Below, piece by piece: positions 6,163 to 28,411 of a DNA stretch of 28,411 nt. Numbering within the stretch: position 1 is the stretch's first letter; each line of letters opens with the position of its first letter. The DNA is taken from the UHGV virus genome UHGV-0191955; one strand, 5' to 3'. The translations under genes and the position numbers were made by a program. Under the pieces are notes generated by a model. That model searched no databases. It was not told where the DNA came from and saw nothing but the letters and a program-made list of their open reading frames with translations. Source of the DNA: a virus.

Positions 6163-6219
6163 TTTTGTAATATTACTAAAAATCATTACCTTTATTAGCA
6201 TTTTATAAAACTTTTCAGT

Positions 6220-7838: not shown

Positions 7839-7901
7839 ACATTGTCTTATCCATATCTCGAACCGCTTCGCTATGTTTGTCCCGAATAAAGGCAAGCGAT
7901 A

Positions 7902-9747: not shown

Positions 9748-9766
9748 CCGAAATTTCCATATCTTT

Positions 9767-9796
9767 GTAACAGCCGATGATTTCATCGGCTGTTAC
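9767..9796 (+). terminator. perfect 14-bp stem hairpin (GTAACAGCCGATGA-TT-TCATCGGCTGTTAC), candidate terminator
   Basis: Read directly from the sequence. Located just after the protease stop and before the AT-rich R-M island. Confidence 0.5.
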
Positions 9797-9826
9797 TTGT
9801 TATACAAATTAAGTAAATAAAGCATA

Positions 9827-10405: not shown

Positions 10406-10409
10406 TATT

Positions 10410-11030
10410 ATGCCATATACTGGAGGACCATTGAATACATTAAATGGGAAAATGGGTATTTCTGCTCCGGAGAATAGTGTACCTGTTATGAAATTAATTC
10501 GCATACATCATCCTAAAAGTAAAGAGGAATTAGTCGAATTAATAAAATGGCATTCTGAAAACAAGTGTGAATGCGGTATTATTAGTAGAGGAACGGTTGA
10601 ACAATTTGGGAAAAATTTATATGAAGCTCAAAAAGCATTTTGGGGAGAATATAAATTTTCATTAGCAATATGCATCCAATGGGAATATGATTTATTTGTT
10701 TTACAATCATTAAAAGGTTCTTTGGTTGAAGATGCTGCTATTAGGACTTTAGAGACCCAATTAGAGCCTGAATATGCTTTTTCAGAAGCAACCGGTTATA
10801 TGGATGAAGAATTGCGAATTGATATTATTTGCAAATATAACAATAGCATTATTGCCGGCATTCAGGTCAAACCTTTAACATTTTTAATGATGAGACGAGA
10901 AATTATTACTTATAATGCTATGGCTAATCAAAAATGGGATAAACCTGTATATTATTTATATTATGACGAAAATGAAAATTTCGTAAATATTGAAGAAGTA
11001 AAGTCTCATTTAAAATCATCGATTCTTTAA
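10410..11030 (+). CDS. candidate restriction endonuclease, C-terminal fragment
   Basis: Begins 4 nt after the previous stop. Removing one T from the T5 run fuses both ORFs into a single ~399-aa frame. Its stop overlaps the methyltransferase stop on the opposite strand. Confidence 0.35.
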   Translation: MPYTGGPLNTLNGKMGISAPENSVPVMKLIRIHHPKSKEELVELIKWHSENKCECGIISRGTVEQFGKNLYEAQKAFWGEYKFSLAICIQWEYDLFVLQSLKGSLVEDAAIRTLETQLEPEYAFSEATGYMDEELRIDIICKYNNSIIAGIQVKPLTFLMMRREIITYNAMANQKWDKPVYYLYYDENENFVNIEEVKSHLKSSIL

Positions 11031-12172: not shown

Positions 12173-12284
12173 TTCCTCCTATAATCCTCCATTATTCAAC
12201 TTTATTCTAAAATTGCGACAAAGTTTCCTTTTAGAGGCTGTTCGGTGGATTAAGTTTGCTCCCGAAGAATCAATAACGAGATTT

Positions 12285-15209: not shown

Positions 15210-15650
15210 ATGCCTGAAACTTACGGAAACAAACAGGTCGTCCAAGGCGAGGACATCATCCTCTTGGTGGACGATAAGACGACGCTCCACGCCACGACGC
15301 ACACGCTGAAGGTGGACTTGGAGATGAAGGAGCTGCGCACGAAGGATACCGACGGCAAGGAGAAGTGGCCGGGCGATGTCTCGTGGTCGGTGGACGGCGA
15401 CGGGCTGGTGGTCATCGACGATTCGATCGAGAACAGCCATACCGCCGAGGAGGTTCTCGACCTGGTACTTAGGAAAAAACTCGTCGATGTGGTCGTCAAG
15501 TCGCCGCTCACGGGACTCGCGAAGATGTACACGGGCAAAGCCTACATCACGACCTTTTCGCTCTCGACGCCTGCGGGCGACAACGCCTCTTACAGTTATT
15601 CGCTTACCGGCAGCGGCAACCTGACGCCGGCAGACAAACCTGAATCCTGA
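15210..15650 (+). CDS. putative major tail (tube) protein
   Basis: 146 aa, acidic, beta-rich-looking. Position immediately upstream of the chaperone frameshift pair. Confidence 0.5.
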   Translation: MPETYGNKQVVQGEDIILLVDDKTTLHATTHTLKVDLEMKELRTKDTDGKEKWPGDVSWSVDGDGLVVIDDSIENSHTAEEVLDLVLRKKLVDVVVKSPLTGLAKMYTGKAYITTFSLSTPAGDNASYSYSLTGSGNLTPADKPES

Positions 15651-15655
15651 CCGCT

Positions 15656-16015
15656 ATGAAAGAGATTATCATTCAAGGCTCTCCGCGTCCGATCCACTTC
15701 GGATTGCGCGCCATCGACGAATTCGTCAAGCAGCGCGGTGCGGAGTTCGGGCAGACGGTCGCTTCGACTGATGCCCTCGGATCGTTGGACAGCATCGTCG
15801 CGCTGACCGCTACGGGACTCAACGAGGGCGCACGGCGTGCCGGCAGCGACCGCCGCTACACCGAAGACGAAGTGTGGGACATCTTCGACGAGGATCCGTC
15901 GCTCATCCTCGCCGTCTCGGGACTCTTCGTCGAGAGCATCGCGCCGCTGACGGATAAGTTGGGCGACCTCTCAAAAAACGGGAAACGCCCGACGACGGGG
16001 AGCCGCAAGCGGTAA
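15656..16015 (+). CDS. tail assembly chaperone (G-like, zero-frame product)
   Basis: 119-aa ORF containing slippery heptamer A_AAA_AAC at 15973-15979. The -1 frame is open from that point to 16338. Confidence 0.6.
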   Translation: MKEIIIQGSPRPIHFGLRAIDEFVKQRGAEFGQTVASTDALGSLDSIVALTATGLNEGARRAGSDRRYTEDEVWDIFDEDPSLILAVSGLFVESIAPLTDKLGDLSKNGKRPTTGSRKR

Positions 16016-16338
16016 CCTACGAGCGATGGTTCGCCATCGCCGTCGGGCAGATGGGACTGGCACCCGAAGCCTTCGAACGGCTGACGCCCGCAGAGTTCAT
16101 CTACGCGTGGCTCGGCTGGGCGAAACACGAGGGCGACAGGCAGCGGCAGGCATGGGAACGCGAACGGTGGGCGGTATGGGTTGCGACCTGCATCCAGCTC
16201 GACCGCAAAGACCGCCGCCCGATGACCGAGATGTTCCCGCTGCCGTGGGAGGGGCTGACGGCTCCCTCCAAACAAGAACCGACCATGCAGGAACGCATGG
16301 AACGAATCGAAGAAATGAAACGATGTATCCGAAAATAA
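15656..16338 (+). CDS. tail assembly chaperone GT-like fusion product via -1 frameshift
   Basis: The -1 frame (ORF-track 16051..16338) has no stop across the overlap with the G-like ORF and would join at the A_AAA_AAC heptamer. This is the canonical G/GT arrangement of tailed phages. Confidence 0.5.
15973..15979 (+). other. candidate -1 programmed ribosomal frameshift slippery site (A_AAA_AAC)
   Basis: Heptamer fits the X_XXY_YYZ rule in the zero frame of the chaperone gene, with the downstream -1 frame open. Confidence 0.5.
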
Positions 16339-16832
16339 CCCTGATTATCCTGACGATCGCCGCTGCCGGCTGCTCTCCGCTCCGAAGTACGCGATCCGAG
16401 CGGCACGAGACGCTCGCTATCACCGACTCGACCCTTACGATGCTGTTCCGGCAGGAGTTCGAGCGGCAGATCGGAACGCTCCGCCGGACCGTCGTGGAGT
16501 TTTATCCGCCGGCGGAATATCCGGAACCGAGCGACGAACGACTGCCGAATCCGACCGATACGCTCCGCGCCGTTCTTCCGCCTCCGAAGATTCCGGCGAC
16601 GAGTGCTTCCCGACAGCCGGTCAAACGCATCTCCTATACCGAGGTATCGATGCAGAATGACCGAACTATCCTTATCGACAGCATTTCGCATAGCCGCATC
16701 AACACGGCAGCCCGCAACGACGTGCAGGAGCAGACCGACGAGCAACCATCCTCCGGTGTCGCGTGGCTCAAATGGGCGACGGCGCTCGTCGCACTGACGC
16801 TTCTGCTGCTCTTATTCCTCAAACTCCGATAA
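16323..16832 (+). CDS. putative lipoprotein with C-terminal membrane anchor
   Basis: ATG at 16323. Signal peptide with lipobox-like 'TIAAAGCS' and a C-terminal hydrophobic helix 'WATALVALTLLLLLFL'. The Arg-rich N-terminal extension in the ORF track was discarded. Confidence 0.55.
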   Translation: MYPKITLIILTIAAAGCSPLRSTRSERHETLAITDSTLTMLFRQEFERQIGTLRRTVVEFYPPAEYPEPSDERLPNPTDTLRAVLPPPKIPATSASRQPVKRISYTEVSMQNDRTILIDSISHSRINTAARNDVQEQTDEQPSSGVAWLKWATALVALTLLLLLFLKLR

Positions 16833-16842
16833 CCGAACCCAT

Positions 16843-17625
16843 ATGGCAAGATTGAAAACTCCGATTTCATACTATGGCGGCAAGCAGATGCTTTTGAAGC
16901 ATATCCTGCCGCTGATTCCCGAACATACGCTCTACACGGAAGCCTTCTGCGGCGGCTGCGCCGTGCTGTTCGCCAAGCCGCCCGCGCAGTGCGAAGTCAT
17001 CAACGACACGAACACCGAATTGGTGAACTTCTACCGCGTGGCGCAGACCCAGTATGCGGCACTCAAGGCGATGATCGACGCGACGCTCCACAGCCGCGAG
17101 ATACACGCGCACGCACGGCATATCAACGAGCATCCGTCGTTCTTCACGCCCGTCGAGCGGGCTTGGGCTGTATGGGTCTGCACGAAGTTGGGCTTCGCCT
17201 CGATGATCGACGGAACGTTCGGCTACGACCGCAGCGGTACGACGACGCTGAAACTCCGCAATGCGAAAGAGGCCTTCACCGAGGAGTTGTGCGGACGCCT
17301 CGGCCGCGTTACGGTCGAGTGCGAGGACGGCATCGATGTCATCCGCCGCTACGACTGTCCCGAGGCGTTCCACTTCGTCGATCCGCCCTATGTCGGCAGC
17401 GACTGCGGACACTACAACGGTACGTTCGACGAGGAGGATTTTTCGAGGCTGCTCGACACGCTTGCAACGGTCGAAGGGAAGTTCATGCTCACGATGTTTC
17501 CGCACGAGAAGATCGAACGCCTCGCCGCCCGGCACGGCTGGACGATCCATCGGCTCGACCGCACCATCACCGCCTCGAAAGTTTCCCGCCGCCGGCAGGA
17601 GGAGTGGATTACGACGAACTACTGA
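16843..17625 (+). CDS. Dam-like N6-adenine DNA methyltransferase (D12 class)
   Basis: 'ISYYGGK' N-terminal motif, 'EAFCGGCAV' AdoMet motif and catalytic 'DPPY' in 'FVDPPYVGS'. No adjacent nuclease. Confidence 0.85.
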   Translation: MARLKTPISYYGGKQMLLKHILPLIPEHTLYTEAFCGGCAVLFAKPPAQCEVINDTNTELVNFYRVAQTQYAALKAMIDATLHSREIHAHARHINEHPSFFTPVERAWAVWVCTKLGFASMIDGTFGYDRSGTTTLKLRNAKEAFTEELCGRLGRVTVECEDGIDVIRRYDCPEAFHFVDPPYVGSDCGHYNGTFDEEDFSRLLDTLATVEGKFMLTMFPHEKIERLAARHGWTIHRLDRTITASKVSRRRQEEWITTNY

Positions 17626-17632
17626 TACCGAC

Positions 17633-18408
17633 GTGGGTACATTCGCTTACGATAACCCCGCTTACATCGCTTCGTGCTCGTTCGGCAAGGATTCGATCGC
17701 TACGATCCTCCTTGCCCTCGAATATGGCGAGCCGCTCGATGCCGCTGTCTTTTCGGAGGTGATGTTCGACCATCGGCGCAATATCAGCGGCGAGATGCCC
17801 GAACACATCGAGTGGATCTATTCGACGGCGATTCCGCGTCTTGCCGCCTTGGGCGTACGGGTCGATGTCGTCCGTTCGGAGAAAGACTATCTTACGTTAT
17901 TCCATACGGTCATAGGGAGCAGTACGCATAAGGGTATGCTGCGCGGCTGGCTCATCGGCGGCAAGTGCTGCGCCAATCGCGACCTCAAAATCCGGCCTAT
18001 ACATCGCTATTATGCCCGTTATCGAGAGCAAGGCATCGTGCAGTACGTCGGCATCGCGGCCGACGAACCGAGACGCCTCGCGCGGATGCAGGAAAAGGGT
18101 ATAACCGTAAAACGAGTCTGCTCGCCAAGTACGGGTACACCGAGGCGGACGCCCGACGCAAGTGCGAAGAATACGGTCTGCTGTCGCCTCTCTACCGCAC
18201 CTCGCATCGGGGCGGTTGCTGGTTCTGCCCCAACTGTCGCATTCCGGTCTTCGCCGAACTGCGCCGCCGCCATCCTGAATTGTGGCGTGAACTGCAACTG
18301 CTCTCGAAGGTCGGAAATAAGTCCTCCGAAGGTTTCAAATACGGGCTGACTTTCGAGGAGGTCGAGCGGCGGATGGATCTCTTCGAACACTCACCGACGC
18401 CATTCTAA
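17633..18408 (+). pseudogene. PAPS-reductase-like (PP-loop) protein, frameshifted
   Basis: N-terminal part in one frame carries PP-loop-like 'CSFGKDS' and 'GIAADEPRRLARM'. C-terminal part in the -1 frame carries 'HRGGCWFCPNC'. The frame switch falls near 18092-18115 in an A4/G3 run. Start assigned to the GTG at 17633. Confidence 0.55.
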
Positions 18409-18410
18409 AC

Positions 18411-18509
18411 AACTGAAAATAAATACGATAATAGTCGCCGAATAACTTGCGTGTTCCGAATAACGATGTTATGTTTGTCATGCAATAAACAACTAAAATA
18501 GAGCGAATT
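18411..18509 (+). promoter_or_regulatory. repeated promoter element, copy A
   Basis: ~100-bp element shared by five loci. TTG at 18447-18449 and TATGTTTG at 18470-18477 with 20-nt spacing. Ends at the ATG of the downstream ORF. Confidence 0.65.
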
Positions 18510-18813
18510 ATGAAAAAGACAGTCATCGTGAAAGGCGAGCGTCGCAAGGTAGAATTCGAGTATCGAGTAATCGATAAATTGGTTAGTTGCCAAAAAGCAA
18601 ACGATGGGATAAGCAGGGGGATGGCTTCCGGTCGAAACCTATTACCACGAAGCCGTTGCCATTATCGACGGTGTAGAATATCCGAGCGTTCGACGCTGGC
18701 ATACCAATGGCGGCAGGTATTCGGAACAGTTCTTTTACAACGGACATTTCTATGATTCGTATAAGAAAATGATCGAGCGCATTCTCGAATCGGCAGACGA
18801 AAGTAACTCTTGA
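18510..18813 (+). CDS. small cassette protein A, apparently frameshifted
   Basis: ORF 18510..18755 reads 'MKKTVIVKGERRKVEFEYRVIDKLV...'. After a G5 run (18616-18620) the +1 frame gives a protein-like 'WLPVETYYHEAVAIIDGVEYPS...ERILESADESNS' to a stop at 18811-18813, while the original frame turns Arg-rich and low-complexity. Confidence 0.45.
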
Positions 18814-18833
18814 ACCTCGATGGAAGCAGATGG

Positions 18834-18863
18834 AAAAACAGGCTCCGTACGGAGCCTGTTTCG
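18834..18863 (+). terminator. perfect palindrome terminator hairpin
   Basis: AAAAACAGGCTCCGT/ACGGAGCCTGTTT: an A-tract, a perfect GC-rich palindrome, then a T-tract, a bidirectional intrinsic-terminator shape, directly after cassette A. Confidence 0.6.
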
Positions 18864-18886
18864 ATCTTTCGCTGTAAGCGTAAATA

Positions 18887-18997
18887 ACTGAAAATAAATA
18901 TGATAATAGTTACCGGATAACTTGTGTGTTCCGAATAACGATGTTATGTTTGCAGTACGATAAACAACTGAATAATAGACGATTAAAACACCCGAAC
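18887..18997 (+). promoter_or_regulatory. repeated promoter element, copy B
   Basis: Same element as copy A with substitutions; contains CTTG...TATGTTTG; followed by ATG at 18998. Confidence 0.65.
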
Positions 18998-19420
18998 ATG
19001 ACAAGTGCACAGGCAAAACAGATCGCATCGAACTATATGCGGCAGCAGAGCGATTATGTATTTTCGGCGGTAACGGTTAAAAGCCTCGCTCCGGCGAACG
19101 GACCAGTCAAGGTGTGGCTCACCACCGAAGACGACTACGGGGACGAACTGATCGTCGAGGTCGAGATGGACCCGCAGTCGAATGAGATCCGCTGGAAGAA
19201 GATCTGCAACACGGGACGCCTATCCGAATATCTGAAGCCGGCTACTCGGATCGATAAACTTTCGGCGGGGCAGCGCTTCCGGCTGCAAGGCGACTGCGTG
19301 GTTTACGAGTTCGTGGACAATGTAAAGGACCGCAGCAATATTCCCTATATCATCCGACGGGCGGACCGATCCGGTTGCGTATCGAGAGTCGGATGGCAGG
19401 AAGTTTTTCCTATCGAGTAA
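18998..19420 (+). CDS. small cassette protein B (140 aa)
   Basis: ATG immediately after promoter copy B. No motif recognised. Confidence 0.55.
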   Translation: MTSAQAKQIASNYMRQQSDYVFSAVTVKSLAPANGPVKVWLTTEDDYGDELIVEVEMDPQSNEIRWKKICNTGRLSEYLKPATRIDKLSAGQRFRLQGDCVVYEFVDNVKDRSNIPYIIRRADRSGCVSRVGWQEVFPIE

Positions 19421-19429
19421 CCGATAACC

Positions 19430-19456
19430 GCGCACCTTGCCGAAAGGCAGGTGCGC
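19430..19456 (+). terminator. stem-loop with GAAA tetraloop
   Basis: GCGCACCTTGCC-GAAA-GGCAGGTGCGC, one bulged T, located after cassette B. Confidence 0.4.
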
Positions 19457-19472
19457 ATAAAACGATACGACG

Positions 19473-19703
19473 ATGAAACTCCGCCGAACGAAAACCGGAA
19501 CTTACACGATTGCTGGTATTACCGCAACTCAATATCGCACCCTTGCGGCAGTGCTTATGACCGCCGATGAGCGTTGCTTCGACGAACAGGACGAGGACGG
19601 CAACTATTACAGCAACGACGATTTCGTCTGCTCGCTCGATGGCGATGAACGGGTGGCTTTGCGACAGGTGTGCGACGCACTTCGGCAACGTGTAAAATAT
19701 TGA
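19473..19703 (+). CDS. small acidic protein (76 aa)
   Basis: ATG ORF between cassettes B and C. Not preceded by the repeated promoter element. Confidence 0.45.
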   Translation: MKLRRTKTGTYTIAGITATQYRTLAAVLMTADERCFDEQDEDGNYYSNDDFVCSLDGDERVALRQVCDALRQRVKY

Positions 19704-19796
19704 AAATAAATGCGATAATAATTAATGGAAAACTTGCGTGTCCCGAATTATGATGCCATCTTTGCAGTGCAATAAACAACTAATATAGAGTGTATT
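19698..19796 (+). promoter_or_regulatory. repeated promoter element, copy C
   Basis: TATTGAAAATAAATGCGATAATA...CTTGCGTG...TTTGCAGTGCAATAAACAACTAATAT. The -7 box is degenerate here (TCTTTG). Confidence 0.55.
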
Positions 19797-20126
19797 ATGA
19801 GTACAAGAGCAAGAATCGGAGTAAGACTTCCAGACGGAAAAATCAAAAGCGTCCATATATGGCGGGACGGACATCCCGATACGTTGGGCGAAACGTTGTC
19901 AGCGCACTACAATACATTGGAATCGGCAATGGCACTGGTCGAACGAGGCAATATAATCGATGTGGAAGCGCGTCTCGAAGAGTGCCGGTTCGAGAAATCG
20001 AATGAACGGTACGATACCGAGCCTCGGGTTTATAAAACGGTTGCCGCCTACGAACGAGAAATCGGAGGAGGATATATGTTACAAATATCTCTATCGGGAC
20101 GGCAAGTGGGAATACCGGGCGGTTGA
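19797..20126 (+). CDS. small cassette protein C (109 aa)
   Basis: ATG immediately after promoter copy C. No motif recognised. Confidence 0.55.
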   Translation: MSTRARIGVRLPDGKIKSVHIWRDGHPDTLGETLSAHYNTLESAMALVERGNIIDVEARLEECRFEKSNERYDTEPRVYKTVAAYEREIGGGYMLQISLSGRQVGIPGG

Positions 20127-20202
20127 TTGGTAACCGACTTCCGATCGTAAGGAACGAATGCTCCGAGCCTCCGACGGGAGGCTTCCCCTCGTTTCGTCCA
20201 TT

Positions 20203-20247
20203 CAGTTGTTTATTGCGACCGGAGCCGTGCATCGTGTACGGCTCCGG
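20203..20247 (+). terminator. CAGTTGTTTATTGC box plus 10-bp GC hairpin (CCGGAGCCGT/ACGGCTCCGG), copy 1
   Basis: Perfect stem followed by TTT. The 14-mer is the reverse complement of GCAATAAACAACTG found in the cassette leaders. Confidence 0.5.
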
Positions 20248-20321
20248 TTTCCGTTCAAAGGCGGGACATTGTTTCTGCAACGGATCTTCGGCAGCATGTA
20301 TATTTACCATATGGAATAGGC

Positions 20322-20440
20322 TTGATAAATAGTTGGTATTCTTTGAATTAAGTTACCGATAAACTTGCGTGTCCCGAATAATGATGTTATGTTTGCAGTG
20401 CAATAAACGATTGAACTGCAATCTATTAAACGACTCGATT
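20322..20440 (+). promoter_or_regulatory. repeated promoter element, copy D
   Basis: 5' half diverged; retains CTTGCGTGTCCCGAATAATGATGTTATGTTTGCAGTGCAATAAACGATTG; followed by ATG at 20441. Confidence 0.6.
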
Positions 20441-20659
20441 ATGAATACTGCGAATCGAAAAAGAACGGAAATCGACGCCGAACTCGACCGGTTGGAGGTC
20501 GAATTCGAGAAGAACCGCAAGGAGATGCAACGCCTTGCCGACGAGAACAGACGTGCCGGCAACCGCTATGGCGAATTATCGAATGCGAATCACGACATCA
20601 ACAACCGGATCCTCACATTGCTCGCAGAGCGTTGGGAATCGGAAGAGACGACCGATTGA
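20441..20659 (+). CDS. small coiled-coil cassette protein D (72 aa)
   Basis: ATG after promoter copy D. Charged, heptad-like sequence 'IDAELDRLEVEFEKNRKEMQRLADENRR'. Confidence 0.5.
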   Translation: MNTANRKRTEIDAELDRLEVEFEKNRKEMQRLADENRRAGNRYGELSNANHDINNRILTLLAERWESEETTD

Positions 20660-20675
20660 CGAAACGAGAGACGGA

Positions 20676-20703
20676 CCCCGCCGAGAAATATTCCTCGGCG
20701 GGG
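20676..20703 (+). terminator. 10-bp perfect stem hairpin (CCCCGCCGAG/CTCGGCGGGG)
   Basis: Read directly; lies after cassette D. Confidence 0.45.
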
Positions 20704-20734
20704 TAAAACCCGAAACCGGAAAACACATAAAGAG

Positions 20735-20926
20735 ATGAAAACGATGAATGCAAAGGTAGGCGACAAGATTCGCATTATCCATCTTCGCGACGAGGACAGC
20801 CGTTACGACGGCAAGGAGGGAACGATCGAGTTCATCGACTCGCTCGGACAACTGCACGGCACATGGGGCGGGTTGGCAGTCATTCCCGAAGTCGATCGGT
20901 TCGTAATTATCGAGAAAGCGGAATAA
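20735..20926 (+). CDS. small protein (63 aa)
   Basis: ATG ORF without the repeated promoter element. Alternative ATG at 20744. Confidence 0.45.
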   Translation: MKTMNAKVGDKIRIIHLRDEDSRYDGKEGTIEFIDSLGQLHGTWGGLAVIPEVDRFVIIEKAE

Positions 20927-20977
20927 TCGCCTGCAACGATAATGCTCGGTTCCGCCATCTTTTTATAGCATCTAATC

Positions 20978-21076
20978 TATTGAAAATAAATACGATAATA
21001 GTCGCCGAACAACTTGCATGTTCCGAATAACGATGTTATGTTTGCAGTACGATAAACAACTAAAAAAGAGCGAATT
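20978..21076 (+). promoter_or_regulatory. repeated promoter element, copy E
   Basis: Closest copy to A. Contains CTTGCATG...TATGTTTG; followed by ATG at 21077. Confidence 0.65.
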
Positions 21077-21364
21077 ATGAGAACGAACATCGAACGGTTT
21101 TTAGAGAGATTCCCGAAGAATGCCACGAATTGGGCGCAGGCGACGGACGAGGTGCGCGATATGGCTCACAAGGCTCGCGAATTGTTGGAAGAGTACGAAG
21201 GCGTAATCGTCGAACCGGTAAATTTCCGGACTATCGAGACCCCGGCCGAGTGGAATACCGAAGGTCGCGAGTTCATCCTGACGAATTTCGATCGCATGGC
21301 GGATAGGACCAAAGAGCGTTTCTACGACTACTTCCGCGAGTGGTTCGAAGGCGAAGAGGAATAG
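21077..21364 (+). CDS. small acidic cassette protein E (95 aa)
   Basis: ATG immediately after promoter copy E. No motif recognised. Confidence 0.55.
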   Translation: MRTNIERFLERFPKNATNWAQATDEVRDMAHKARELLEEYEGVIVEPVNFRTIETPAEWNTEGREFILTNFDRMADRTKERFYDYFREWFEGEEE

Positions 21365-21372
21365 ACCGACGC

Positions 21373-21409
21373 ACGGATGCTCCCCGTTCAAGCTGCGGGG
21401 AGCATCCGT
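21373..21409 (+). terminator. 14-bp perfect stem hairpin (ACGGATGCTCCCCG/CGGGGAGCATCCGT)
   Basis: Read directly; 9-nt loop; directly after cassette E. Confidence 0.5.
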
Positions 21410-21471
21410 CCTAACCCCGGAGTAGGGTTGCACACGTCGTCTCTTTCGATAGGAAATCTATCGTGCTCCAT

Positions 21472-21515
21472 CAGTTGTTTATTGCAGCCGGAGCCGCATC
21501 ATGTGCGGCTCCGGC
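21472..21515 (+). terminator. CAGTTGTTTATTGC box plus 12-bp GC hairpin (GCCGGAGCCGCA/TGCGGCTCCGGC), copy 2
   Basis: Second copy of the element at 20203-20247, with the same 14-mer and a related stem. Confidence 0.5.
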
Positions 21516-21589
21516 AATCTCATTATAGAGGGACTTTGTTTCAGCGATGAGGCCTTTTGCCATTTTACCTTTATTCCCGCGACAAAGGT

Positions 21590-24454
21590 ATGGCGATTTT
21601 TGGTCTGAAATATTACGCAGACCTTCGCTCGAAGTACAAGGGCGTCTTGTGGCGCGTAGAGATTTCGGAGCGGGGGTACGCAGGTCCGTCGGAGGAGATG
21701 ACCTTCGACGGCGGTGCACCGTTGCAGATCACGTGGGAGAAACGGGGCGACGAGTTCTACGTGCCGGTCAAGGCTTCGGAGGCGACCATCAACATCCTCT
21801 GCAAGGAGAATTTCCATTACCTGGCTCTGTTCACTTCCGATCCCCGTTATTTTCGCGTCTCGATTTTCCGCAATCGGCAGCTCTATTGGCGGGGCTACGT
21901 CACCTCCGACCTCTACTCCGAGAACTTCACGGCTCCGCCTTATACCGTCACGATCAAGGCCGTGGACGGCTTCAATCTCTTGTCGAGCATTCCGTTCCGC
22001 GACCTCTTACATATCGGCATCGCGGGCAGACGATCGCTGTGGGAACTGCTCTCCTCCTGCATCGACCTGTTGGAGTTGGACCTCGATACGGCGGACTGGA
22101 TGGATCTGTATGCCGAAGGGATGGACGAGAACGCCTCTCCGCTTCGTCAAACCTATATCGACCTCGAACGGCTCTACTACGTCTACGAGCAGCCTACCTA
22201 TCGCGACATCCTCGAACTGTGCCTGCGTCCGTTCGCCGGGCAAATCTTCCAGTCGAACGGAGCCCTGCATATCCGCCGCGCCGTGTCGCTCTACCGAACT
22301 GCCCGTCCCGTGAATTTCTACCGCGTCGGCACGGAGTATCCCGTCGGACGGATCGTTACGGGCAGCGGGCTGCGGCTCGTGATCCATACCGGTGCGCAGG
22401 TCGTCGCGTCGGCGGCACGCGAGCGCATCGACGGTATGTGGACGGGCGACCTGCACATCGAGGGAAGTTCGACGCTCGACATCGTCCCTGCGCTGCGCAA
22501 GGTCTCGGTCGATGTAAAGAACAAGAGCCTCGACAACCTGATCGCCCGCATCGGGTTCTACGATCCCGACGCTTGGATGGATCCGCACGGCTTCGTCTCC
22601 GTGAAGAGCGGGGAGGAACTCTATTTCAGCGGCGAGGATGCCTATCGGAGTGAGGAGGTCGTAACTCGGGGGTTTCCCGTCGAGCAGTGCAACTTCCCGC
22701 TCGTATGGGAGTTCGGGTTGCAGACCTACCATCGGGAGTGGGGACTGGGCATTTACCGCCCGAACGAAAGCGTCGATGTCGCGGTGCATTACGGCGTCCG
22801 CATCGTCGGCGAAAAGGCGACATACAGCCTCACCGAGAGCGGCTCGTGGGTGCAGTCTTCCGACGGGGAGATCGCGAGTACGGTCAAGACCGGCAACGAG
22901 CAGAATATGAAGATCGAGATCGACGGCATCCCCTGCGACGGCGAGTGGCGGTTCTTCATCCGGCAGACGCTCATCGGCAAGATCACGACCTATACCGACC
23001 GTTTCGGCAATCCGAGCGGCCGCACCTCGGGCTATCAGGAGAGCGCCGCGTTCCGCAAGATGACGCTCTCGATCGATGCGGGCGACAGCTACGACAAGGG
23101 ATTGCGCTACGAATCGCTCGTCGATCCCGCGAACAATGTCGATATGTCCGTAACGCTTCCCGTGAGCGATATTCCCGCCATTCCGAACGACCGGCTGCTC
23201 TATGCGCTCTACTACCTCGATGTCGCCGGCAATCCCACGCGCATCTGGCATACGAAAGGTCGGAACGACTACGACACGCTGGTCGGTCATATCGTGCAGG
23301 GAGCATTGCGGTACAAGCAGCTGCCGAGCCGGCGCATCACGGGCGAGATCTTCACGGGGCAGCATATCGATATGAATACGGTGGTTCGGGACGACAAGTT
23401 CCTGAACGCCGCCTATTACCTGAACTCCATCGAACTGAATGCCCTCGACGACTCCTACAACAGCGAACTCACGGAGATGCCGCATCTGCTCGCGACGGAG
23501 AGACCGCCGGAGGGCGACGACTGCATAGCGGTCGCAACGCTGTCCTTCACGGTCGGCAAGGCGATCCGCTGCCTGAACCGGCTGCTGCTCCAGTCCGCCG
23601 ATAAAAAGACGGTCTATGCCTTCGACACCGCTACGCGGCAGGTGCGGGAGATCTACCGCAGCACGACGTCCTTCGAGATGTACGAAGCGGACGAGGGATT
23701 CGTCGCGGTGGATGGGAAAGAGGTCCGCTACCTCGACTATCGCGGTACGGTCGAACGGATATATACCCCGCCGGAGGAGTACCGCAACGTCGCGACCTAC
23801 ATGGACGGGTATATCCATATCCTGAAATCTTACCGGCAGTATATCGGTCCGCGGGGCGGCAATGCCGGCGGACGCAGCGCCCGCACGGCAGAGGACGAGG
23901 ATCCGAACTACCGCACCTATCGTTACCTCTCGCGCCCGGAGTGCAAGTACGTTTCGCCCGACGCCTCGACCGGCTATCGCGGACGGGGATATGCCTACGA
24001 GGGTACGCCGATGTCGGGTGCGATCCTCGCCCTGCGGCGCACGGAAAATACGATCGTCGTGAACACCTCGCATGGCGCCTATCTGCACGACAAACGGTTC
24101 CACCAGCCCTGCAAGATGCTGCAATTCGCTGCGGGCGAGCAGATCGTCACCGTCTCCGACAACTATATCGGCATCAACGCCGACGATATGCTGTGGTTCT
24201 ACCGGCGGGATTCGATTACCGAGCGGACGCTGCTCCGGCGGTTGGGACGCTGGGCGGATCATGCCGACCATACGATGAGCGAGGTCGTGCACTCCTACGA
24301 CGACGGCATCTTCATCCGGAACTTCCGCGACGACACGACGACCGACGTTCGGAACGTCGCCGGCTGGGGCGAGACCATCATGGGATTATTCTTCATCTAC
24401 GGCGACCTCTATATCGTGCGCGAACGGGCGATTTACAAATTCATTCCTGAATAA
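21590..24454 (+). CDS. large hypothetical protein (~954 aa), possibly virion-associated
   Basis: Long GC-rich ORF with phage-like codon usage. ATG at 21590 preferred over the TTG at 21557. No motif recognised. The long minus-strand ORF opposite it is treated as antisense noise. Confidence 0.55.
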   Translation: MAIFGLKYYADLRSKYKGVLWRVEISERGYAGPSEEMTFDGGAPLQITWEKRGDEFYVPVKASEATINILCKENFHYLALFTSDPRYFRVSIFRNRQLYWRGYVTSDLYSENFTAPPYTVTIKAVDGFNLLSSIPFRDLLHIGIAGRRSLWELLSSCIDLLELDLDTADWMDLYAEGMDENASPLRQTYIDLERLYYVYEQPTYRDILELCLRPFAGQIFQSNGALHIRRAVSLYRTARPVNFYRVGTEYPVGRIVTGSGLRLVIHTGAQVVASAARERIDGMWTGDLHIEGSSTLDIVPALRKVSVDVKNKSLDNLIARIGFYDPDAWMDPHGFVSVKSGEELYFSGEDAYRSEEVVTRGFPVEQCNFPLVWEFGLQTYHREWGLGIYRPNESVDVAVHYGVRIVGEKATYSLTESGSWVQSSDGEIASTVKTGNEQNMKIEIDGIPCDGEWRFFIRQTLIGKITTYTDRFGNPSGRTSGYQESAAFRKMTLSIDAGDSYDKGLRYESLVDPANNVDMSVTLPVSDIPAIPNDRLLYALYYLDVAGNPTRIWHTKGRNDYDTLVGHIVQGALRYKQLPSRRITGEIFTGQHIDMNTVVRDDKFLNAAYYLNSIELNALDDSYNSELTEMPHLLATERPPEGDDCIAVATLSFTVGKAIRCLNRLLLQSADKKTVYAFDTATRQVREIYRSTTSFEMYEADEGFVAVDGKEVRYLDYRGTVERIYTPPEEYRNVATYMDGYIHILKSYRQYIGPRGGNAGGRSARTAEDEDPNYRTYRYLSRPECKYVSPDASTGYRGRGYAYEGTPMSGAILALRRTENTIVVNTSHGAYLHDKRFHQPCKMLQFAAGEQIVTVSDNYIGINADDMLWFYRRDSITERTLLRRLGRWADHADHTMSEVVHSYDDGIFIRNFRDDTTTDVRNVAGWGETIMGLFFIYGDLYIVRERAIYKFIPE

Positions 24455-24464
24455 GTGCGAAACT

Positions 24465-24839
24465 ATGGAAACACTATCCATCATTCTGAACTTCATTCTC
24501 GCCAGCGGACTGGCGGGAACGATCCTTTTTTTCAACGCAAAGAAGCGCAAGGAGAACGCGGACGCCGACTCCGCCGAATTAGCAAACACGGAGAAGGTCG
24601 TGGCGATCCAGTCCGAGCAGATCACGCGGCTGGACGGGCGCGTGGAGAAACTCGAAGAGAAGGTCGGCAAACTCGAAATCATCATCGAGCACAAGGACGT
24701 GGAGATCGACCGCAGCCGCATCGTCATCCGGCAGGCGTACAAATGCGAAACGCCGCCCGAACATTGTCCGGTCTTGCTCAAAAGAGCCGAGTTGGAACGC
24801 AGGCGCAAAGAGAGCGACGAAAATAACCGAAAATCATAA
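24465..24839 (+). CDS. membrane protein with N-terminal helix and coiled coil (holin/spanin-like architecture)
   Basis: Hydrophobic helix 'LSIILNFILASGLAGTILFF' followed by heptad-like 'RLDGRVEKLEEKVGKLEIIIEHKD'. A functional call is not possible from sequence alone. Confidence 0.45.
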   Translation: METLSIILNFILASGLAGTILFFNAKKRKENADADSAELANTEKVVAIQSEQITRLDGRVEKLEEKVGKLEIIIEHKDVEIDRSRIVIRQAYKCETPPEHCPVLLKRAELERRRKESDENNRKS

Positions 24840-24970
24840 AGCAATGAGCAGAGGATTGAGTAATTGTAACCGACGCCGCGGAGCGAGAGCAGAACCCGCT
24901 TGCGGGCTCTGCCGAGCCGCAAGGAGGAAACGATTGCTACAATGACATTCCAGAACGAATAACAGATATT

Positions 24971-25393
24971 ATGAACGAGAAAACTTTGCCGAGAGGGATG
25001 CGCAATCGCAACCCGGGCAATATCCGCCGATCGGCGACGAAGTATCTGGGCGAAGTTGCGCCCTCGCGCGATGCCGCATTCAAGCAGTTCGAGACGATGG
25101 CGTGGGGCTACCGCGCGATGTTCGTGCTGCTGGACTCCTACTCCCGTAAAGGTTATCGGACAATCCGGCAAATGATCTCGCGCTACGCTCCGCCCATCGA
25201 GAACCATACCGAGAACTATATTCGTTGCGTGTCCGAATGGTCGGGCATCTGCGCCGACGAACCATTGGATACGCAGGCGGGCGAAACGATGATCCCTATC
25301 GTGGCGGCTATGTCGCGCATGGAAAACGGCTGTCCGACGGTACTATCGGACGTCGAGGCAGGCTGGACGCTTTATCTGCAACACAAACCCTAA
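24971..25393 (+). CDS. hypothetical protein (140 aa)
   Basis: ATG ORF directly upstream of the tape measure gene. Contains 'NRNPGNIRRS'. Function not recognised. Confidence 0.45.
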   Translation: MNEKTLPRGMRNRNPGNIRRSATKYLGEVAPSRDAAFKQFETMAWGYRAMFVLLDSYSRKGYRTIRQMISRYAPPIENHTENYIRCVSEWSGICADEPLDTQAGETMIPIVAAMSRMENGCPTVLSDVEAGWTLYLQHKP

Positions 25394-25399
25394 ACAGCC

Positions 25400-27757
25400 A
25401 TGTCCCGGAGAATCGCCGATTTACTTATAAAGATCGGAGCCGACTCGTATGAGTTCCAGCAGAAGGCGCAGCAGGTCGAGAAAGGGCTCGGCTCGCTCGA
25501 AAAGAAGCTGACCTCCGTCGGCAAGTCGCTCTCGTTGAAACTCTCCGCGCCCCTTGCGGCATTGGGCGGCGTGTCGCTGCACCTGGCCGATGTGCAGGCC
25601 AAAGCCGAAGCGAAGGTGCAGCAGGCGCTCAAGGTTACGAATCAGGCCGTCGGTTACAACTTCCGGCAGTTGGCCGACTACGCTTCGGAGTTGCAGGGCA
25701 AGACGATTTTCGGCGACGAGACGATCCTCGACAAATCCACCGCCCGCCTGTTGGCTTTTACCAATATCACGGGCGAAAACTTCAAGCGCACGCAGGCGTT
25801 GGCATTGGACCTCGCCACGGCGTTGGAGATGGATTTAGGTTCGGCGTCGTTGCAATTGGGCAAGGCGCTCTCCGATCCCACGACGAAGCTCTCGTCGCTG
25901 TCGCGTGCCGGCATCACCTTCTCCAAGGAGCAGACGGAAGTAATCAAGAAACTCGCCGAGACGGGCGACATAGCCAAGGCACAGGCGATGATCCTCGACG
26001 AATTGGAGCGCAAGTTCGGCGGGCAGGCCGAAGCCGCCGCACGGACGGGACTCGGAGCCGTGCAGCAACTCAAGAATGCGTGGGGCGACTTCCTCGAACG
26101 GATCGGTGCGGCCATCATGCCTTTCGCGACGAAGATAGCAGGTGCGCTCTCGACAGTCGTACAGATGCTGCAATCGATGTCGCCGGCGATGATGCAGACG
26201 ATCGTCGTTGTAGCGGGGCTGGTCGCAGCGGTCGGTCCCCTTTCGCTCGGAATCGGTGCCGTGATCAAGGTGCTGCCGATGCTGGCGGCGGGATTTACGG
26301 CATTGCTGTCGCCCGTCGGGTTGATTATGGCGGCGGTCCTCGCGCTCGGTGCGGCGTTCGCCTATGCCCGCATCCAAAAGCAGAAGATGATCGACGAGAT
26401 GGCCGAGGTCGAATCGCTCGACGAGCTCGAACGCAAGTTGCAGGAGAATATCGCCGAGCAGAAAGAGATCATCGCCACGACGACCAAGACACGGATGGTT
26501 CCGAATTTCGGGGGATTAGTCGCCGGTTTTACTTTGCAGAAAGTACCCGACGAATCGAAACTCGCACCCCTGCGTAAGGAGTACGACCTGCTGACGGCTG
26601 CTATCGAGAAGAAACGCGAAACGGAGAAGAAGGCGGCCGAGGCGCAGGCCGAACTGGACAAGGTAATGGACGAAGCACGCAAGCAGACCGAGGAGTTGAT
26701 GAAGTCCATCGCCGGAACCAACGCGCAGACGGAACAAAGCACGGGCATCATCGGTAAATTGCAGGCGCGGATCGAGGCTCTCGAAAAGAAGAAACTGCTG
26801 CCCGAATCGACCGTCGAGGATATCGCCGCGGCGAACGCCGAGATCGAGAAGCTGCAAAAAGAGCTGGAGCGGATCAGGAATATCAAGCCCGAAGACCTGG
26901 AACCCGTCGTCAAGATGGACGGTATTTTGCCCGAAGGCTTCGAGTTAGAGTTGCCGGCGCCGAAACTCAAAATGGGCGATCTGAAACCCGTAGCATTGCA
27001 ATATGCGCAGCAGATGCAGACGATATTCGGCGCGGTGCGCGAAGGGTTGTACGGCTGGGCGGACGACAACAGCGCATACTTGCAGGAGCACGTCGCCGAT
27101 ACGGTCTCGATGGTTGAGAATTACACGACGGCACTGACGGCGAAGGGCTGGTCGTTCTCGGCAGCATTGGAGCATGTCCACGCCACGATTGCGGAGGTGA
27201 TGACGCGCTTCGATCAGCAGGTGTCGAAGTTTATGGCCGACAGCATCGTCGCAGCGGCGGAGGCTATCGGGCAGATCATTGCCGGCGATTTGGGATTCGG
27301 AGGGCTGATGAAAGCGATCCTGACGCAGTTCGCCTCTTTTCTGAAAAATATCGGCTCGCAACTCATCGAGTTCGGCGTGATGATCATCGCCTTCAAGTCT
27401 GCACTGAAATCCGTCCTCGCCAATCCGTGGGCGGCGATCGCCATCGGAGCAGCGATGGTCGCAGCGGCAACCGTGATGACGGCGCTCATCAACAAGAATG
27501 CGGAGAAGAGTGTGCCGGCATTGGCCAACGGCGGTCTGGCATACGGTCCCACCTATGCGATGGTCGGAGACAACCCCAATGCCGGCACGGATCCCGAAGT
27601 CATCGCACCGCTGTCGAAGTTGCAGGCGATGCTCCCGACGGGTGGCAGCCCGCAGAATCTACGAATAACCCTCGGCGGTCAATTGACTGCCAAGGGTCGG
27701 GACTTGGTGTATGTTCTCGGAAAAGAGAACTTCAAGTCACAGGTGTTGGGTGGATGA
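25400..27757 (+). CDS. tail tape measure protein
   Basis: 785 aa. Ala/Leu/Gln-rich coiled-coil N-terminus, conserved tape-measure core 'LGKALSDPTTKLSSLSRAGITFSKEQTEVIKKLAETGDIAKAQAMILDELERKFGG', central hydrophobic segments, and a Gly/Ala-rich C-terminus. Confidence 0.85.
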   Translation: MSRRIADLLIKIGADSYEFQQKAQQVEKGLGSLEKKLTSVGKSLSLKLSAPLAALGGVSLHLADVQAKAEAKVQQALKVTNQAVGYNFRQLADYASELQGKTIFGDETILDKSTARLLAFTNITGENFKRTQALALDLATALEMDLGSASLQLGKALSDPTTKLSSLSRAGITFSKEQTEVIKKLAETGDIAKAQAMILDELERKFGGQAEAAARTGLGAVQQLKNAWGDFLERIGAAIMPFATKIAGALSTVVQMLQSMSPAMMQTIVVVAGLVAAVGPLSLGIGAVIKVLPMLAAGFTALLSPVGLIMAAVLALGAAFAYARIQKQKMIDEMAEVESLDELERKLQENIAEQKEIIATTTKTRMVPNFGGLVAGFTLQKVPDESKLAPLRKEYDLLTAAIEKKRETEKKAAEAQAELDKVMDEARKQTEELMKSIAGTNAQTEQSTGIIGKLQARIEALEKKKLLPESTVEDIAAANAEIEKLQKELERIRNIKPEDLEPVVKMDGILPEGFELELPAPKLKMGDLKPVALQYAQQMQTIFGAVREGLYGWADDNSAYLQEHVADTVSMVENYTTALTAKGWSFSAALEHVHATIAEVMTRFDQQVSKFMADSIVAAAEAIGQIIAGDLGFGGLMKAILTQFASFLKNIGSQLIEFGVMIIAFKSALKSVLANPWAAIAIGAAMVAAATVMTALINKNAEKSVPALANGGLAYGPTYAMVGDNPNAGTDPEVIAPLSKLQAMLPTGGSPQNLRITLGGQLTAKGRDLVYVLGKENFKSQVLGG

Positions 27758-27766
27758 TGCGATGAT

Positions 27767-28411
27767 TTATTCCGAAAATAATTTTTCAAATTCAGTAAAA
27801 TCATTTACGATAAGCCCACGAGGGTTGTTTTGCTCCCATTTTAATAGATTGGGTTCTGTTTTTCCGGTATTTCTCGAGTTAATATCTCTACATATATATT
27901 CACTATATTTCTGGAAACTCTCAATTTGTTTAAGATCAGGATAGCTGGCAAAAAATCGCATATTTGTTTCCCAATCCCGCATCGATCTTATACCGGTAGC
28001 GAATCCGTTATTTGCTAATTGGATATTAACATTTGCAGTATGGGATAGATTTTGAATTTCCGGAAATCTATTAATAATATGTCTTCCTAATATCAAACAA
28101 TGAGGAATTCCGCAAAATGCAAAATTATTTTTCTGTTTCCATGCATTAAACAGAAAATATTCGATATGCGGCATCTCGTCGATCGGATAAATTTCGGCGT
28201 AAAAACAATTGCTGAAATGATCTCGAATTAAAAAATTGACAATGTGACGTTTGCCGGTTCTCTCATAATTATTCCAATTAATATCGAATTTTTTTAGTTG
28301 ATATTTGATCTCTCCATTTTTTAACAAATAATAATTTTGAGAAATCGACATATTTAATTGATGTACTTGATTGGGGTAGTCGCTTTTGTATTTAAAATGA
28401 TAGCCGATCAT
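27767..28411 (-). CDS. hypothetical protein, AT-rich, possibly 5'-partial at window edge
   Basis: 214 codons on the minus strand running to the last base of the window, convergent with the tape measure gene. Sharp drop in GC. No motif recognised. Confidence 0.5.
   Translation of the reverse strand: MIGYHFKYKSDYPNQVHQLNMSISQNYYLLKNGEIKYQLKKFDINWNNYERTGKRHIVNFLIRDHFSNCFYAEIYPIDEMPHIEYFLFNAWKQKNNFAFCGIPHCLILGRHIINRFPEIQNLSHTANVNIQLANNGFATGIRSMRDWETNMRFFASYPDLKQIESFQKYSEYICRDINSRNTGKTEPNLLKWEQNNPRGLIVNDFTEFEKLFSE

Follow-up and report, generated by a model that had tools for sequence, protein, structure and literature searches.

The tail-tip proteins nearest to the one described here are the Tal/hub proteins gp59 of phage 80alpha, ORF16 of lactococcal phage p2, pb3 of T5, and gp25 of mycobacteriophage Bxb1, and Mu gp44 and VgrG belong to the wider fold family of gp27-like hubs. 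In lysis, an N-terminal lipobox combined with a C-terminal transmembrane domain (TMD) is the defining architecture of the unimolecular spanins (u-spanins) of the phage T1 gp11 type. Lysis genes can also lie among structural genes, and in P2 they are located between the head and tail genes. LysA2b of mycobacteriophage D29 is reported to be encoded downstream of the tape measure gene (bioRxiv 10.64898/2026.08.27.747656). The closest described lysis enzyme is ORF39 of Hafnia phage Enc34, whose catalytic domain is PDB 7q47; an assignment of this entry to Pae87 was ruled out, as Pae87 (PF11860) corresponds to 7q4s/7q4t (Cernooka et al. 2022, PMC8943055). In Enc34, the lysis genes form one unbroken cassette (ORF38-41, with two-component spanins) located after the morphogenesis genes.

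The window analysed here, a stretch of 28,411 nucleotides (UHGV-0191955), represents a temperate, HK97-like siphovirus that is integrated into the genome of a member of the Bacteroidales, probably Alistipes. Three genes directly upstream of the tape measure protein (TMP) gene are the subject of this work, and they are listed below with the features needed to interpret them.

15656-16338, + strand: tail assembly chaperones G (119 aa) and G-T, with a -1 frameshift at A_AAA_AAC (15973-15979)
16323-16832, + strand: 169-aa gene, lipoprotein with lipobox AAAGC and a C-terminal TMD, probable unimolecular spanin
21373-21409 (14-bp stem) and 21487-21515 (12-bp stem), no strand: two perfect hairpins in the gap that precedes the hub gene
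21590-24454, + strand: 954-aa gene, tail-tip hub protein (Tal / baseplate hub)
21590-22324, + strand: gp27-like N-terminal domain of the 954-aa protein (aa 1-245)
22547-23074, + strand: beta-sandwich of the 954-aa protein (about aa 320-495)
23507-24451, + strand: beta-propeller of the 954-aa protein (about aa 640-954)
24465-24839, + strand: 124-aa gene, single-pass membrane protein, putative holin-type lysis protein
24971-25393, + strand: 140-aa gene, Enc34-type (PHA02564) peptidoglycan glycosidase, stand-alone endolysin, activity predicted
25004-25033, + strand: NRNPGNIRRS motif of the 140-aa protein (aa 12-21)
25322-25324, + strand: catalytic Glu E118 of the 140-aa protein, by alignment to Enc34 Glu131
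25400-27757, + strand: TMP gene (785 aa), tape measure protein, downstream neighbour of the trio

Reality and overall reading of the three genes

An earlier note, made from the letters alone, had proposed three open reading frames on the + strand followed by the TMP gene, and all three are real genes at these coordinates. Their third-position GC (0.80, 0.74, and 0.72 for the 954-aa, 124-aa, and 140-aa genes, respectively) is like that of neighbouring real genes, and the three lie far beyond chance occurrence. The mechanical reading frame of the largest gene opens at TTG 21557 (965 aa), but because its homologues all start with MAxFGLKYYAE, ATG 21590 is the correct start. This protein had 213 cluster matches, with identities of 55-98% among the 120 matches listed.

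We consider it likely that the trio consists of ordinary late genes, encoding a hub, a probable holin, and an endolysin, which stand in a rearranged order with a split lysis cassette. The 124-aa and 140-aa genes would make up two-thirds of this cassette, and the 169-aa lipoprotein is its probable displaced third member, a u-spanin. The functions of the trio are ordinary, and it is the gene order that is unusual: the earlier note had called the position between the cassette array and the TMP gene atypical, and this was borne out. The finding that it had named as one that would count against its view, clear homology to ordinary tail or lysis proteins, was made, in related phages that share the gene order.

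The 954-aa protein has the fold of a tail-tip hub

The 954-aa gene product is a tail-tip hub protein, as fold comparison of its N-terminal region revealed a gp27/Mu gp44-like hub fold. This region is homologous to gp59 of Cellulophaga phage phi18:1 and gene 2 of Bacteroides phage Bacuni_F1 (25-28% identity over ~240 aa), which are also similar in size (905 and 757 aa, respectively), and the record of phi18:1 gp59 describes an MS/MS-verified virion protein. In the full-length AF2 model, the N-domain was poorly modelled and WD40 propellers swamped the Foldseek matches; for these reasons, aa 1-260 was remodelled with a diverse alignment. A profile search for deepening the N-domain alignment gave mostly fragments of close relatives. 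The hub N-terminal domain is present in 3325 representative clusters, where the conserved domain is joined to C-termini of very different kinds, a pattern also seen in tail-tip proteins, and Pfam scans of its distant carriers gave stray CBM and SprB matches only. The claim that the large protein carries no identifiable motif was correct for Pfam, NCBIfam, and PDB sequence searches, in which no match was found, but it did not survive PHROGs, phage tblastn, and fold comparison.

The 954-aa protein differs from the known Tal/hub proteins in several respects. It has no detectable sequence similarity to them or to Pfam, and its C-terminal extension is a beta-sandwich and a beta-propeller rather than a lysin or fibre domain; the C-terminal parts of phi18:1 gp59 and Bacuni_F1 gene 2 are likewise unrelated to it in sequence. 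Its gene is located upstream of the TMP gene, whereas those of the known Tal/hub proteins are located downstream, and the homologues in phi18:1, Bacuni_F1, and Salinibacter M8CR30-2 directly follow the TMP gene, the slot that hub homologues occupy in canonical Bacteroidota siphophages; this difference is positional and not mechanistic. In Bacuni_F1, the gene after the hub homologue is a homologue of the 712-aa protein that follows the TMP in the window. No Dit gene was recognised in the prophage, including beside the hub gene, which leaves the tail-tip inventory incomplete.

On the model of other hubs, the gp27-like N-domain would trimerise, closing the tail tube at its distal end and touching the TMP, and the beta-sandwich and beta-propeller would stick out from the tail tip, probably as a binding module. 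The suggestion of a receptor-binding or injection module thus holds in part, that is, for the large protein with its tail-tip hub and C-terminal beta-propeller.

The 140-aa protein belongs to the Enc34 endolysin family

Judged by its sequence, the 140-aa protein is a member of the Enc34 ORF39 (PHA02564) endolysin family. It matched phrog_873 'endolysin' (E 3e-42), the Enc34 ORF39 catalytic domain PDB 7q47 over aa 5-123 (phmmer, E 7e-12), PDB 9vvp_L, which is Gp29 (E 1.6e-16), and full Enc34 ORF39 (pairwise BLASTP, 37% identity, E 2.5e-18). For 9vvp as a structure entry, the literature search found no paper, its lone text match being an unrelated one. E118, Y83, and Y72 align to Glu131, Tyr95, and Trp79 of Enc34, so that the homologous catalytic domains have the Glu/Tyr/aromatic triad in common, and the three residues, with E118 in an ENG motif, are invariant among three aligned homologues. 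The 'NRNPGNIRRS' that had been noticed in this protein lies near its N-terminus, as listed above. In contrast to Enc34 ORF39, which has a C-terminal two-helix membrane domain, the 140-aa protein has none, and a hydropathy scan found neither a signal nor a SAR helix. The protein would be a cytoplasmic glycosidase that cuts peptidoglycan once released, a family activity that has been demonstrated for Enc34. No other recognisable peptidoglycan hydrolase is encoded in the prophage.

Stand-alone lysin homologues with 60-67% identity occupy classical lysis positions: in loci of the L048 type, the homologue lies after the tail fibres and behind a multi-TMD holin-like protein, and in L033/L034 and L043 it lies after a 124-like protein and before a secreted protein or lipoprotein. 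Among the options raised before, a lysis cassette in an unusual place is thus the best supported for the two small genes, both by the Enc34-type domain and by the occurrence of the pair in lysis contexts.

Alternatively, the whole trio could be an injection module. The 140-aa protein would then be a lysin of the virion, assembled together with the hub and TMP, that breaches the peptidoglycan at DNA entry; the 124-aa protein would help to assemble it or to target it to the membrane, and unrecognised genes elsewhere would lyse the host. The PHA02564 domain does occur in virion proteins, namely Kayfunavirus gp16 ('internal virion protein with endolysin domain'), the TMP of phrog_2276, phrog_7182, and Gp29 of PDB 9vvp (1295 aa), and the tight linkage to the TMP gene could therefore reflect a virion role; 6 nt separate the 140-aa gene from the TMP start, and the linkage is kept down to 44% hub identity. 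However, these virion domains sit in large polypeptides, whereas the 140-aa protein is encoded by a stand-alone ORF that is not part of one, and its close homologues are found in lysis contexts with no adjacent TMP gene (L103 in addition to the loci named above). The ORF shares its frame with the TMP gene in the window, but the frames differ in L007 and L009; because this relation is not conserved, a lysin-TMP fusion by stop-codon readthrough was also rejected. Moreover, no alternative endolysin or holin candidate was found in the prophage. We regard this alternative as rather improbable and prefer the reading of the 140-aa protein as the endolysin of a lysis cassette.

The 124-aa protein is a putative holin-type component

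Membrane and coiled-coil architecture had been attributed to the 124-aa protein, and the analysis agrees, with one hydrophobic helix and a heptad-rich region. The single TMD (about aa 4-23, 24474-24533) is followed by KKRK, the heptad-rich coiled-coil region, a CxxPxxxCPVL motif, and a charged C-terminal tail (RRRKESDENNRKS). In all six family members compared, the TMD has an acidic N-flank without K/R and 4-5 K/R just after it, which predicts an N-out/C-in topology with a cytoplasmic coiled coil, the positive-inside rule being the one basis of this prediction. The 124-like gene is always located directly upstream of the lysin gene, with 4-nt spacing or overlap in relatives, and the pair is also found in lysis-cassette contexts away from any TMP gene. 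As in Enc34, where ORF38 directly 5' of ORF39 has a single TMD and then a hydrophilic C-terminal region, a single-TMD protein precedes the lysin. Analogous pairs of a protein with TMD and coiled coil and an endolysin were found in Flavobacterium 11b and Salinibacter M8CR30-2. In a hydropathy scan of the prophage coding strand, only the 124-aa and 169-aa proteins bear a TMD among the small proteins.

From its small size, TMD, charged C-terminus, and position adjoining the endolysin gene, features expected of a holin, which has at least one TMD, we infer that the 124-aa protein is a holin-type component, which would permeabilise the inner membrane. It matched no holin family in Pfam, NCBIfam, or PHROG; its weak Pfam matches were all coiled-coil families, its best PHROG match was phrog_32423, whose function is not named there, and the homologue search with the family gave only close relatives among the matches listed. 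To our knowledge, single-TMD holins with N-out/C-in topology are not an established class. We speculate, with considerable doubt, that the 124-aa family and the Flavobacterium and Salinibacter analogues, which adjoin unrelated endolysins, form an undescribed holin class, characterised by one N-out/C-in helix with a coiled coil in the cytoplasm. In the prophage family studied here, such a holin would act within a split cassette, and the endolysin may have stayed linked to the hub and TMP genes because the enzyme also acts during entry. The layout of helix and coiled coil is also that of PspB, and one source names a close 124-aa homologue 'shock protein B'.

It is improbable, and slightly more so than the injection module, that the 124-aa protein is instead an inner-membrane (Rz-like) spanin subunit, with the holin being something else or dispensable. 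The N-terminal TMD, coiled coil, and conserved Cys pair do resemble those of i-spanins, weak PHROG matches point in this direction (phrog_739 at E 0.012, phrog_10152 and phrog_214 at 0.06-0.07), the architecturally similar Enc34 ORF38 is labelled 'Rz-like spanin' in RefSeq, and a lipoprotein follows the lysin in L043. However, the N-in/C-out topology of an i-spanin is at odds with the flanking charges in 6/6 family members, which predict a cytoplasmic coiled coil. An o-spanin embedded in the 124-aa gene or encoded in the spacer was rejected, since no credible lipoprotein was found: no lipoprotein ORF is embedded in or overlaps the gene, the alternative-frame ORF at 24455-24826 has no signal peptide or lipobox, and the spacer at 24840-24970, which is absent in relatives, holds none. 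In addition, the separate 169-aa protein already has a complete u-spanin architecture, and the coding-strand scan leaves no further membrane protein as the holin.

The 169-aa lipoprotein is a probable u-spanin

The third lysis function, disruption of the outer membrane, would probably come from the 169-aa lipoprotein, which shares the u-spanin layout with the T1 gp11 type and with Cellulophaga phi18:1 gp65. The latter has the same architecture and is located right after the holin and endolysin genes, whereas the 169-aa gene lies 8 kb from the other lysis genes in the window. No sequence similarity to these u-spanins was detected. Homologues of the 169-aa protein are encoded directly 3' of the lysin in L035/L103 and L101, and in L103 an ATGA overlap joins the two genes.

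Gene order and rearrangement

The order 954-124-140-TMP was found in 23 of the 80 viral loci, with the 954-aa homologue at 44-97% identity, and also in L003-L011, L098-L100, and L102. The TMP, which has internal TM helices, matched phrog_27166 TMP (E 1e-55) and is homologous to that of Bacuni_F1. In canonical relatives, the G/G-T chaperone pair lies directly upstream of the TMP gene. In the window, this pair has its slippery heptamer in the zero frame and an open -1 frame over 15958-16338, and its T part has a weak match to gene 4 of Bacuni_F1. Because the G/GT pair is located there, the 124-aa and 140-aa genes were rejected as tail chaperones; nor do they overlap around a -1 slippery heptamer as such a pair would.

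In L103, whose TMP is 61% identical to that of the window and directly follows G/GT, MTP-G-T-TMP are contiguous, and the opposite strand carries int-hub-124like-lysin-169like-Dam. This canonical junction, together with the contiguous hub-lysis block, indicates that the odd position of the trio reflects a rearrangement. L101 and L102 share 91.6% identity across hub-124-lysin, and their sequences part ~10 nt ahead of the lysin stop; beyond this point, one continues with the 169-like gene and the other with the TMP gene. The ancestral block would have been hub-holin-endolysin-spanin-methylase, still contiguous in a related phage, and the position upstream of the TMP gene would have arisen with breakpoints between the chaperone (GT) and TMP genes and between the endolysin and spanin genes. 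A search of the two junctions found no shared repeat.

In contrast to the contiguous Enc34 cassette, the lysis genes here are split, two of them standing between the hub and TMP genes. As in P2 and D29, they are scattered within or beside the tail genes, but those phages are of other lineages with unrelated proteins, and here the split is traceable to a specific rearrangement.

It is very improbable that the trio is accessory cargo (morons) that the phage could do without, like the upstream methylases and small genes. The three genes are displaced from the canonical position and come after a cargo-like stretch (Dam methylase, PAPS-reductase-like, small ORFs), but this reading, also raised in the earlier note, is contradicted by the conservation and homology data, as their GC3 is like that of core genes, their order and sequence are kept across lineages in which the flanking cargo varies or is replaced, and their structural and lytic homology is clear.

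Implications

The trio does not amount to a new kind of system, and the significance of this work lies in the functions assigned to three genes that lacked annotation and that are found again and again in very common gut Alistipes/Bacteroidales prophages. One cluster alone comprises 382 member sequences, and none of the three proteins had a qualifying Pfam or NCBIfam match. The order of the tail genes (chaperones, TMP, hub) can vary within this Bacteroidales prophage lineage, and synteny-based annotation will therefore mislabel the hub, 124-aa, and 140-aa genes. The Enc34-type endolysin, the possible new holin type, and the u-spanin-like lipoprotein are candidate parts of the lysis machinery of Bacteroidota phages, about which little is known, and such candidates are relevant to phage engineering and enzybiotics.

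A sigma-70 promoter and terminator scan was uninformative, and the promoters of Bacteroidota are of a different kind in any case. The hairpin gap at 21373-21515 separates the variable cargo from the hub-lysis block, and in relatives this junction is occupied by an integrase with ORF6N genes or, in L100, by BACON-domain genes.

Gene layout of the element

The window is an HK97-like temperate siphovirus in which, as the earlier note had it, three plus-strand ORFs stand directly upstream of the tape measure protein (TMP) gene. The best reading of the 124- and 140-aa genes is as lysis genes that stand in an unusual position, and we conclude that the 954-aa protein is a tail-tip hub (Tal or baseplate hub protein). 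What is new is the conserved non-canonical order, with the hub before TMP, and an apparently split lysis cassette.

Main features (window positions unless a locus is named)
2234-3262, plus strand: XerC/D-like recombinase, 342 aa, between HNH and terS
9827-10405 and 10389-11030: two RE_MjaI-like ORFs in low-GC island 9827-12172
11027-12172, minus strand: N6/N4 DNA methyltransferase in the same island
15656-16015, plus strand: G chaperone gene, 119 aa, with A_AAA_AAC in frame at 15973-15979
16323-16832, plus strand: 169-aa lipoprotein, signal MYPKITLIILTIAAAGC (lipobox), C-terminal TMD
16843-17625, plus strand: Dam-type methylase
about 17630-18349, plus strand: PAPS-reductase-like ORF after the Dam-type methylase
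21590-24454, plus strand: first gene of the trio, 954 aa, ORF confirmed
24465-24839, plus strand: second gene of the trio, 124 aa, ORF confirmed
24971-25393, plus strand: third gene of the trio, 140 aa, ORF confirmed
25400-27757: TMP, 785 aa, downstream neighbour of the trio
20032-21336 of locus L003, minus strand: integrase, 434 aa, Bacteroidota-type (Arm-DNA-bind_5), right end of the element

The left part carries, in order, a replication initiator, a DnaC-like loader, HNH, the XerC/D-like recombinase, terS and terL, followed by two low-GC genes, portal, protease, an apparent low-GC restriction-modification island and the major capsid protein; adaptor and neck genes then lead to the major tail protein (MTP, 15210-15650). 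Between the tail assembly chaperone pair (G/GT) and the trio lie the 169-aa lipoprotein gene, the Dam methylase, the PAPS-reductase-like gene and small ORFs. Beyond TMP, the source contig has a low-GC gene on the reverse strand, then genes for 712-aa, 77-aa and 233-aa (DUF285) proteins and the Bacteroidota-type integrase; on the left, the element extends a short way beyond the window. The third-position GC of the trio (0.72-0.80) is that of the core genes. The element thus holds two tyrosine recombinases, one internal (XerC/D-like) and one at its right end (Arm-DNA-bind_5). Judging by the names that close homologues bear, the hosts are presumptively Alistipes or Bacteroidales.

The tail-tip hub

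The 954-aa gene was taken to start at ATG 21590 because its homologues begin MAxFGLKYYAE. Sequence searches of Pfam, NCBIfam and PDB gave no match, and the first ~240 aa matched phrog_30639 and phrog_23570, the latter a 'virion structural protein'. In tblastn, the same region matched the gene directly 3' of TMP in Cellulophaga phi18:1 (gp59, whose annotation notes its detection in virions by MS/MS), Bacteroides phage Bacuni_F1 and Salinibacter M8CR30-2, and also ORF43 of Flavobacterium 11b, further along an unannotated tail region. The TMPs of Bacuni_F1 and the window are also homologous, and the Bacuni_F1 gene after the hub homologue is homologous to that of the 712-aa protein, which follows TMP in our element. 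An exhaustive profile search found the N-terminal domain in 3325 representative clusters, fused to very diverse C-termini. The full-length AF2 model (pLDDT 63) contains a confident beta-sandwich (~aa 320-495) and beta-propeller (~aa 640-954), and aa 1-260 reached pLDDT 86.6 when remodelled with a diverse alignment. The C-terminal extension is probably a binding module; we infer both the binding itself and a role of the protein as trimeric plug of the tail tip. No Dit homologue was recognised across the tail region (window 15210-28411 and L003 downstream), which leaves the tail-tip inventory incomplete. A fibre-like motif at the N-terminus is common to the 712-aa and 77-aa proteins.

The probable lysis genes

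The motif NRNPGNIRRS forms aa 12-21 of the 140-aa protein, which matches phrog_873 'endolysin' (3e-42), the N-terminus of Gp29 (PDB 9vvp, 1.6e-16) and PDB 7q47 (7e-12). The last is the catalytic domain from ORF39 of Hafnia phage Enc34 (family PHA02564), with demonstrated muralytic activity and with the catalytic Glu131 plus Tyr95 and Trp79 (PMC8943055); E118, Y83 and Y72 of our protein are the aligned counterparts and do not vary among its close homologues. A hydropathy scan found neither a signal nor a SAR helix. PHA02564-type domains occur in 767 phage records, as stand-alone endolysins in some phages and at the N-terminus of internal virion proteins (Kayfunavirus gp16) in others, so genomic context must decide the role. 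A virion-associated role would fit this second use of the domain and the conserved linkage to TMP, but we consider it unlikely, since the 140-aa protein stands alone, its reading-frame relation to TMP varies among relatives, and homologous lysins occur in contexts without TMP.

The 124-aa protein contains a single hydrophobic helix (~aa 4-23); behind it come KKRK, a stretch that resembles a coiled coil, and a charged tail. In a set of 80 viral loci with lysin relatives, 23 have the order hub-124-140-TMP, with hub identity of 44-97%. The 124/140 pair is also found without an adjacent TMP: L033/L034 carry, in order, fibre-like genes, a 124-aa TMD and coiled-coil protein, a lysin (66% identity) and a secreted protein, and L043 a 124-like protein, a lysin and then a lipoprotein. 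In L048-L094, a 1700-1900-aa fibre and a multi-TMD holin-like protein precede a lysin at 60% identity. Flavobacterium 11b and Salinibacter M8CR30-2 have analogous pairs, in which the partner of the TMD and coiled-coil protein is a GH19 lysin in the former and an M15-like one in the latter; in Enc34, ORF38, with a single TMD and a C-terminal region that is hydrophilic, lies directly 5' of ORF39. In all six members of the 124-aa family, the N-terminal flank is acidic and free of K/R, and 4-5 K/R follow the helix, which predicts an N-out/C-in topology, against an Rz-like one. From the gene contexts, the analogous pairs and this topology, we read the two proteins as a holin-type protein and an endolysin; the 124-aa family would be a putative uncharacterised holin-type family, new here. 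The coding strand of the prophage has no second lysin and no small membrane protein beyond the 124-aa and 169-aa proteins. Weak Rz-like PHROG matches and cysteines would suit an inner-membrane spanin, but this is distinctly improbable for the 124-aa protein, given the conflicting topology and the complete u-spanin candidate already present.

Homology to ordinary tail and lysis proteins, which the earlier note named as what would refute its view, was found, so by that measure the functions of the trio are ordinary. Among the options of the earlier note, oddly placed lysis genes is the best reading for the two small genes and the large one encodes a tail-tip protein, whereas accessory cargo is contradicted, as the trio is kept while adjacent cargo is replaced.

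A probable displaced third lysis gene

The 169-aa protein, with its lipobox and C-terminal TMD, has the architecture of a unimolecular (u-) spanin, and phi18:1 gp65, whose gene comes directly after those for holin and endolysin, shares this layout; judged by sequence, it is a candidate u-spanin and third, displaced lysis gene. Its gene directly follows G/GT, the usual place of TMP. The region 15656-16338 is a G/GT pair with a canonical -1 frameshift signal, the -1 frame being open over 15958-16338 and overlapping the 119-aa gene; about 9 kb separate it from TMP. L035 and L103, which are one UViG, have a canonical tail module (MTP-G-T-TMP, TMP 61% identical to ours) and, on the opposite strand, int-hub-124like-lysin-169like-Dam-Dcm, where the stop of the lysin gene and the start of the 169-like gene overlap as ATGA. 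L101 has the same block (hub-120-135-143-Dam-Dcm), with the 169-like gene directly after the lysin; L102 encodes an identical 120-aa protein but has TMP after the lysin, and the two are 91.6% identical until they diverge roughly 10 nt short of the lysin stop. From these loci, breakpoints between GT and TMP and between lysin and spanin account for the window order. In the window the 169-Dam-cargo part stands behind GT and hub-124-140 in front of TMP, and the path may have been one of inversions or of transposition; no shared repeat was found at the junctions.

In L101 (Bacteroides sp. GCA_028690125.1), positions 5200-13200 form an ~8-kb island flanked by host genes, with a frameshifted hub, 124-like, lysin, 169-like, Dam, Dcm and small genes. 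L035 has this hub-to-Dcm block too, along with some of the small genes, and the two align in interrupted segments at 66-86% nucleotide identity. The island may be what is left of a prophage, or a module that is maintained separately. In relatives, too, Dam is paired with another DNA-modification gene: in L007, L035 and L101 this is a Dcm methylase gene.

Low-GC islands and variable cargo sites

The island at 9827-12172 (35-40% GC) separates the protease and major capsid genes and seems to be a restriction-modification system that inserted into the head module. A second island (6220-7838, plus strand, about 35% GC) lies between terL and portal and holds two genes (194 and 345 aa), the 345-aa protein weakly matching phrog_857 and a 'kinase' PHROG. 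The reverse-strand low-GC gene 27767-28411, between TMP and the 712-aa tail protein gene, occupies the hub slot of canonical relatives. This slot is a variable cargo site, with a 139-aa gene in L007, four genes in L009, Peptidase_C14 (caspase-like) in L102, and an equivalent in L098. Two perfect hairpins without T-runs precede the hub gene (21373-21409, 14-bp stem; 21487-21515, 12-bp stem). At the same junction relatives carry integrase and ORF6N genes (L009-L011) or BACON-domain genes (L100), which marks it as an insertion hotspot.
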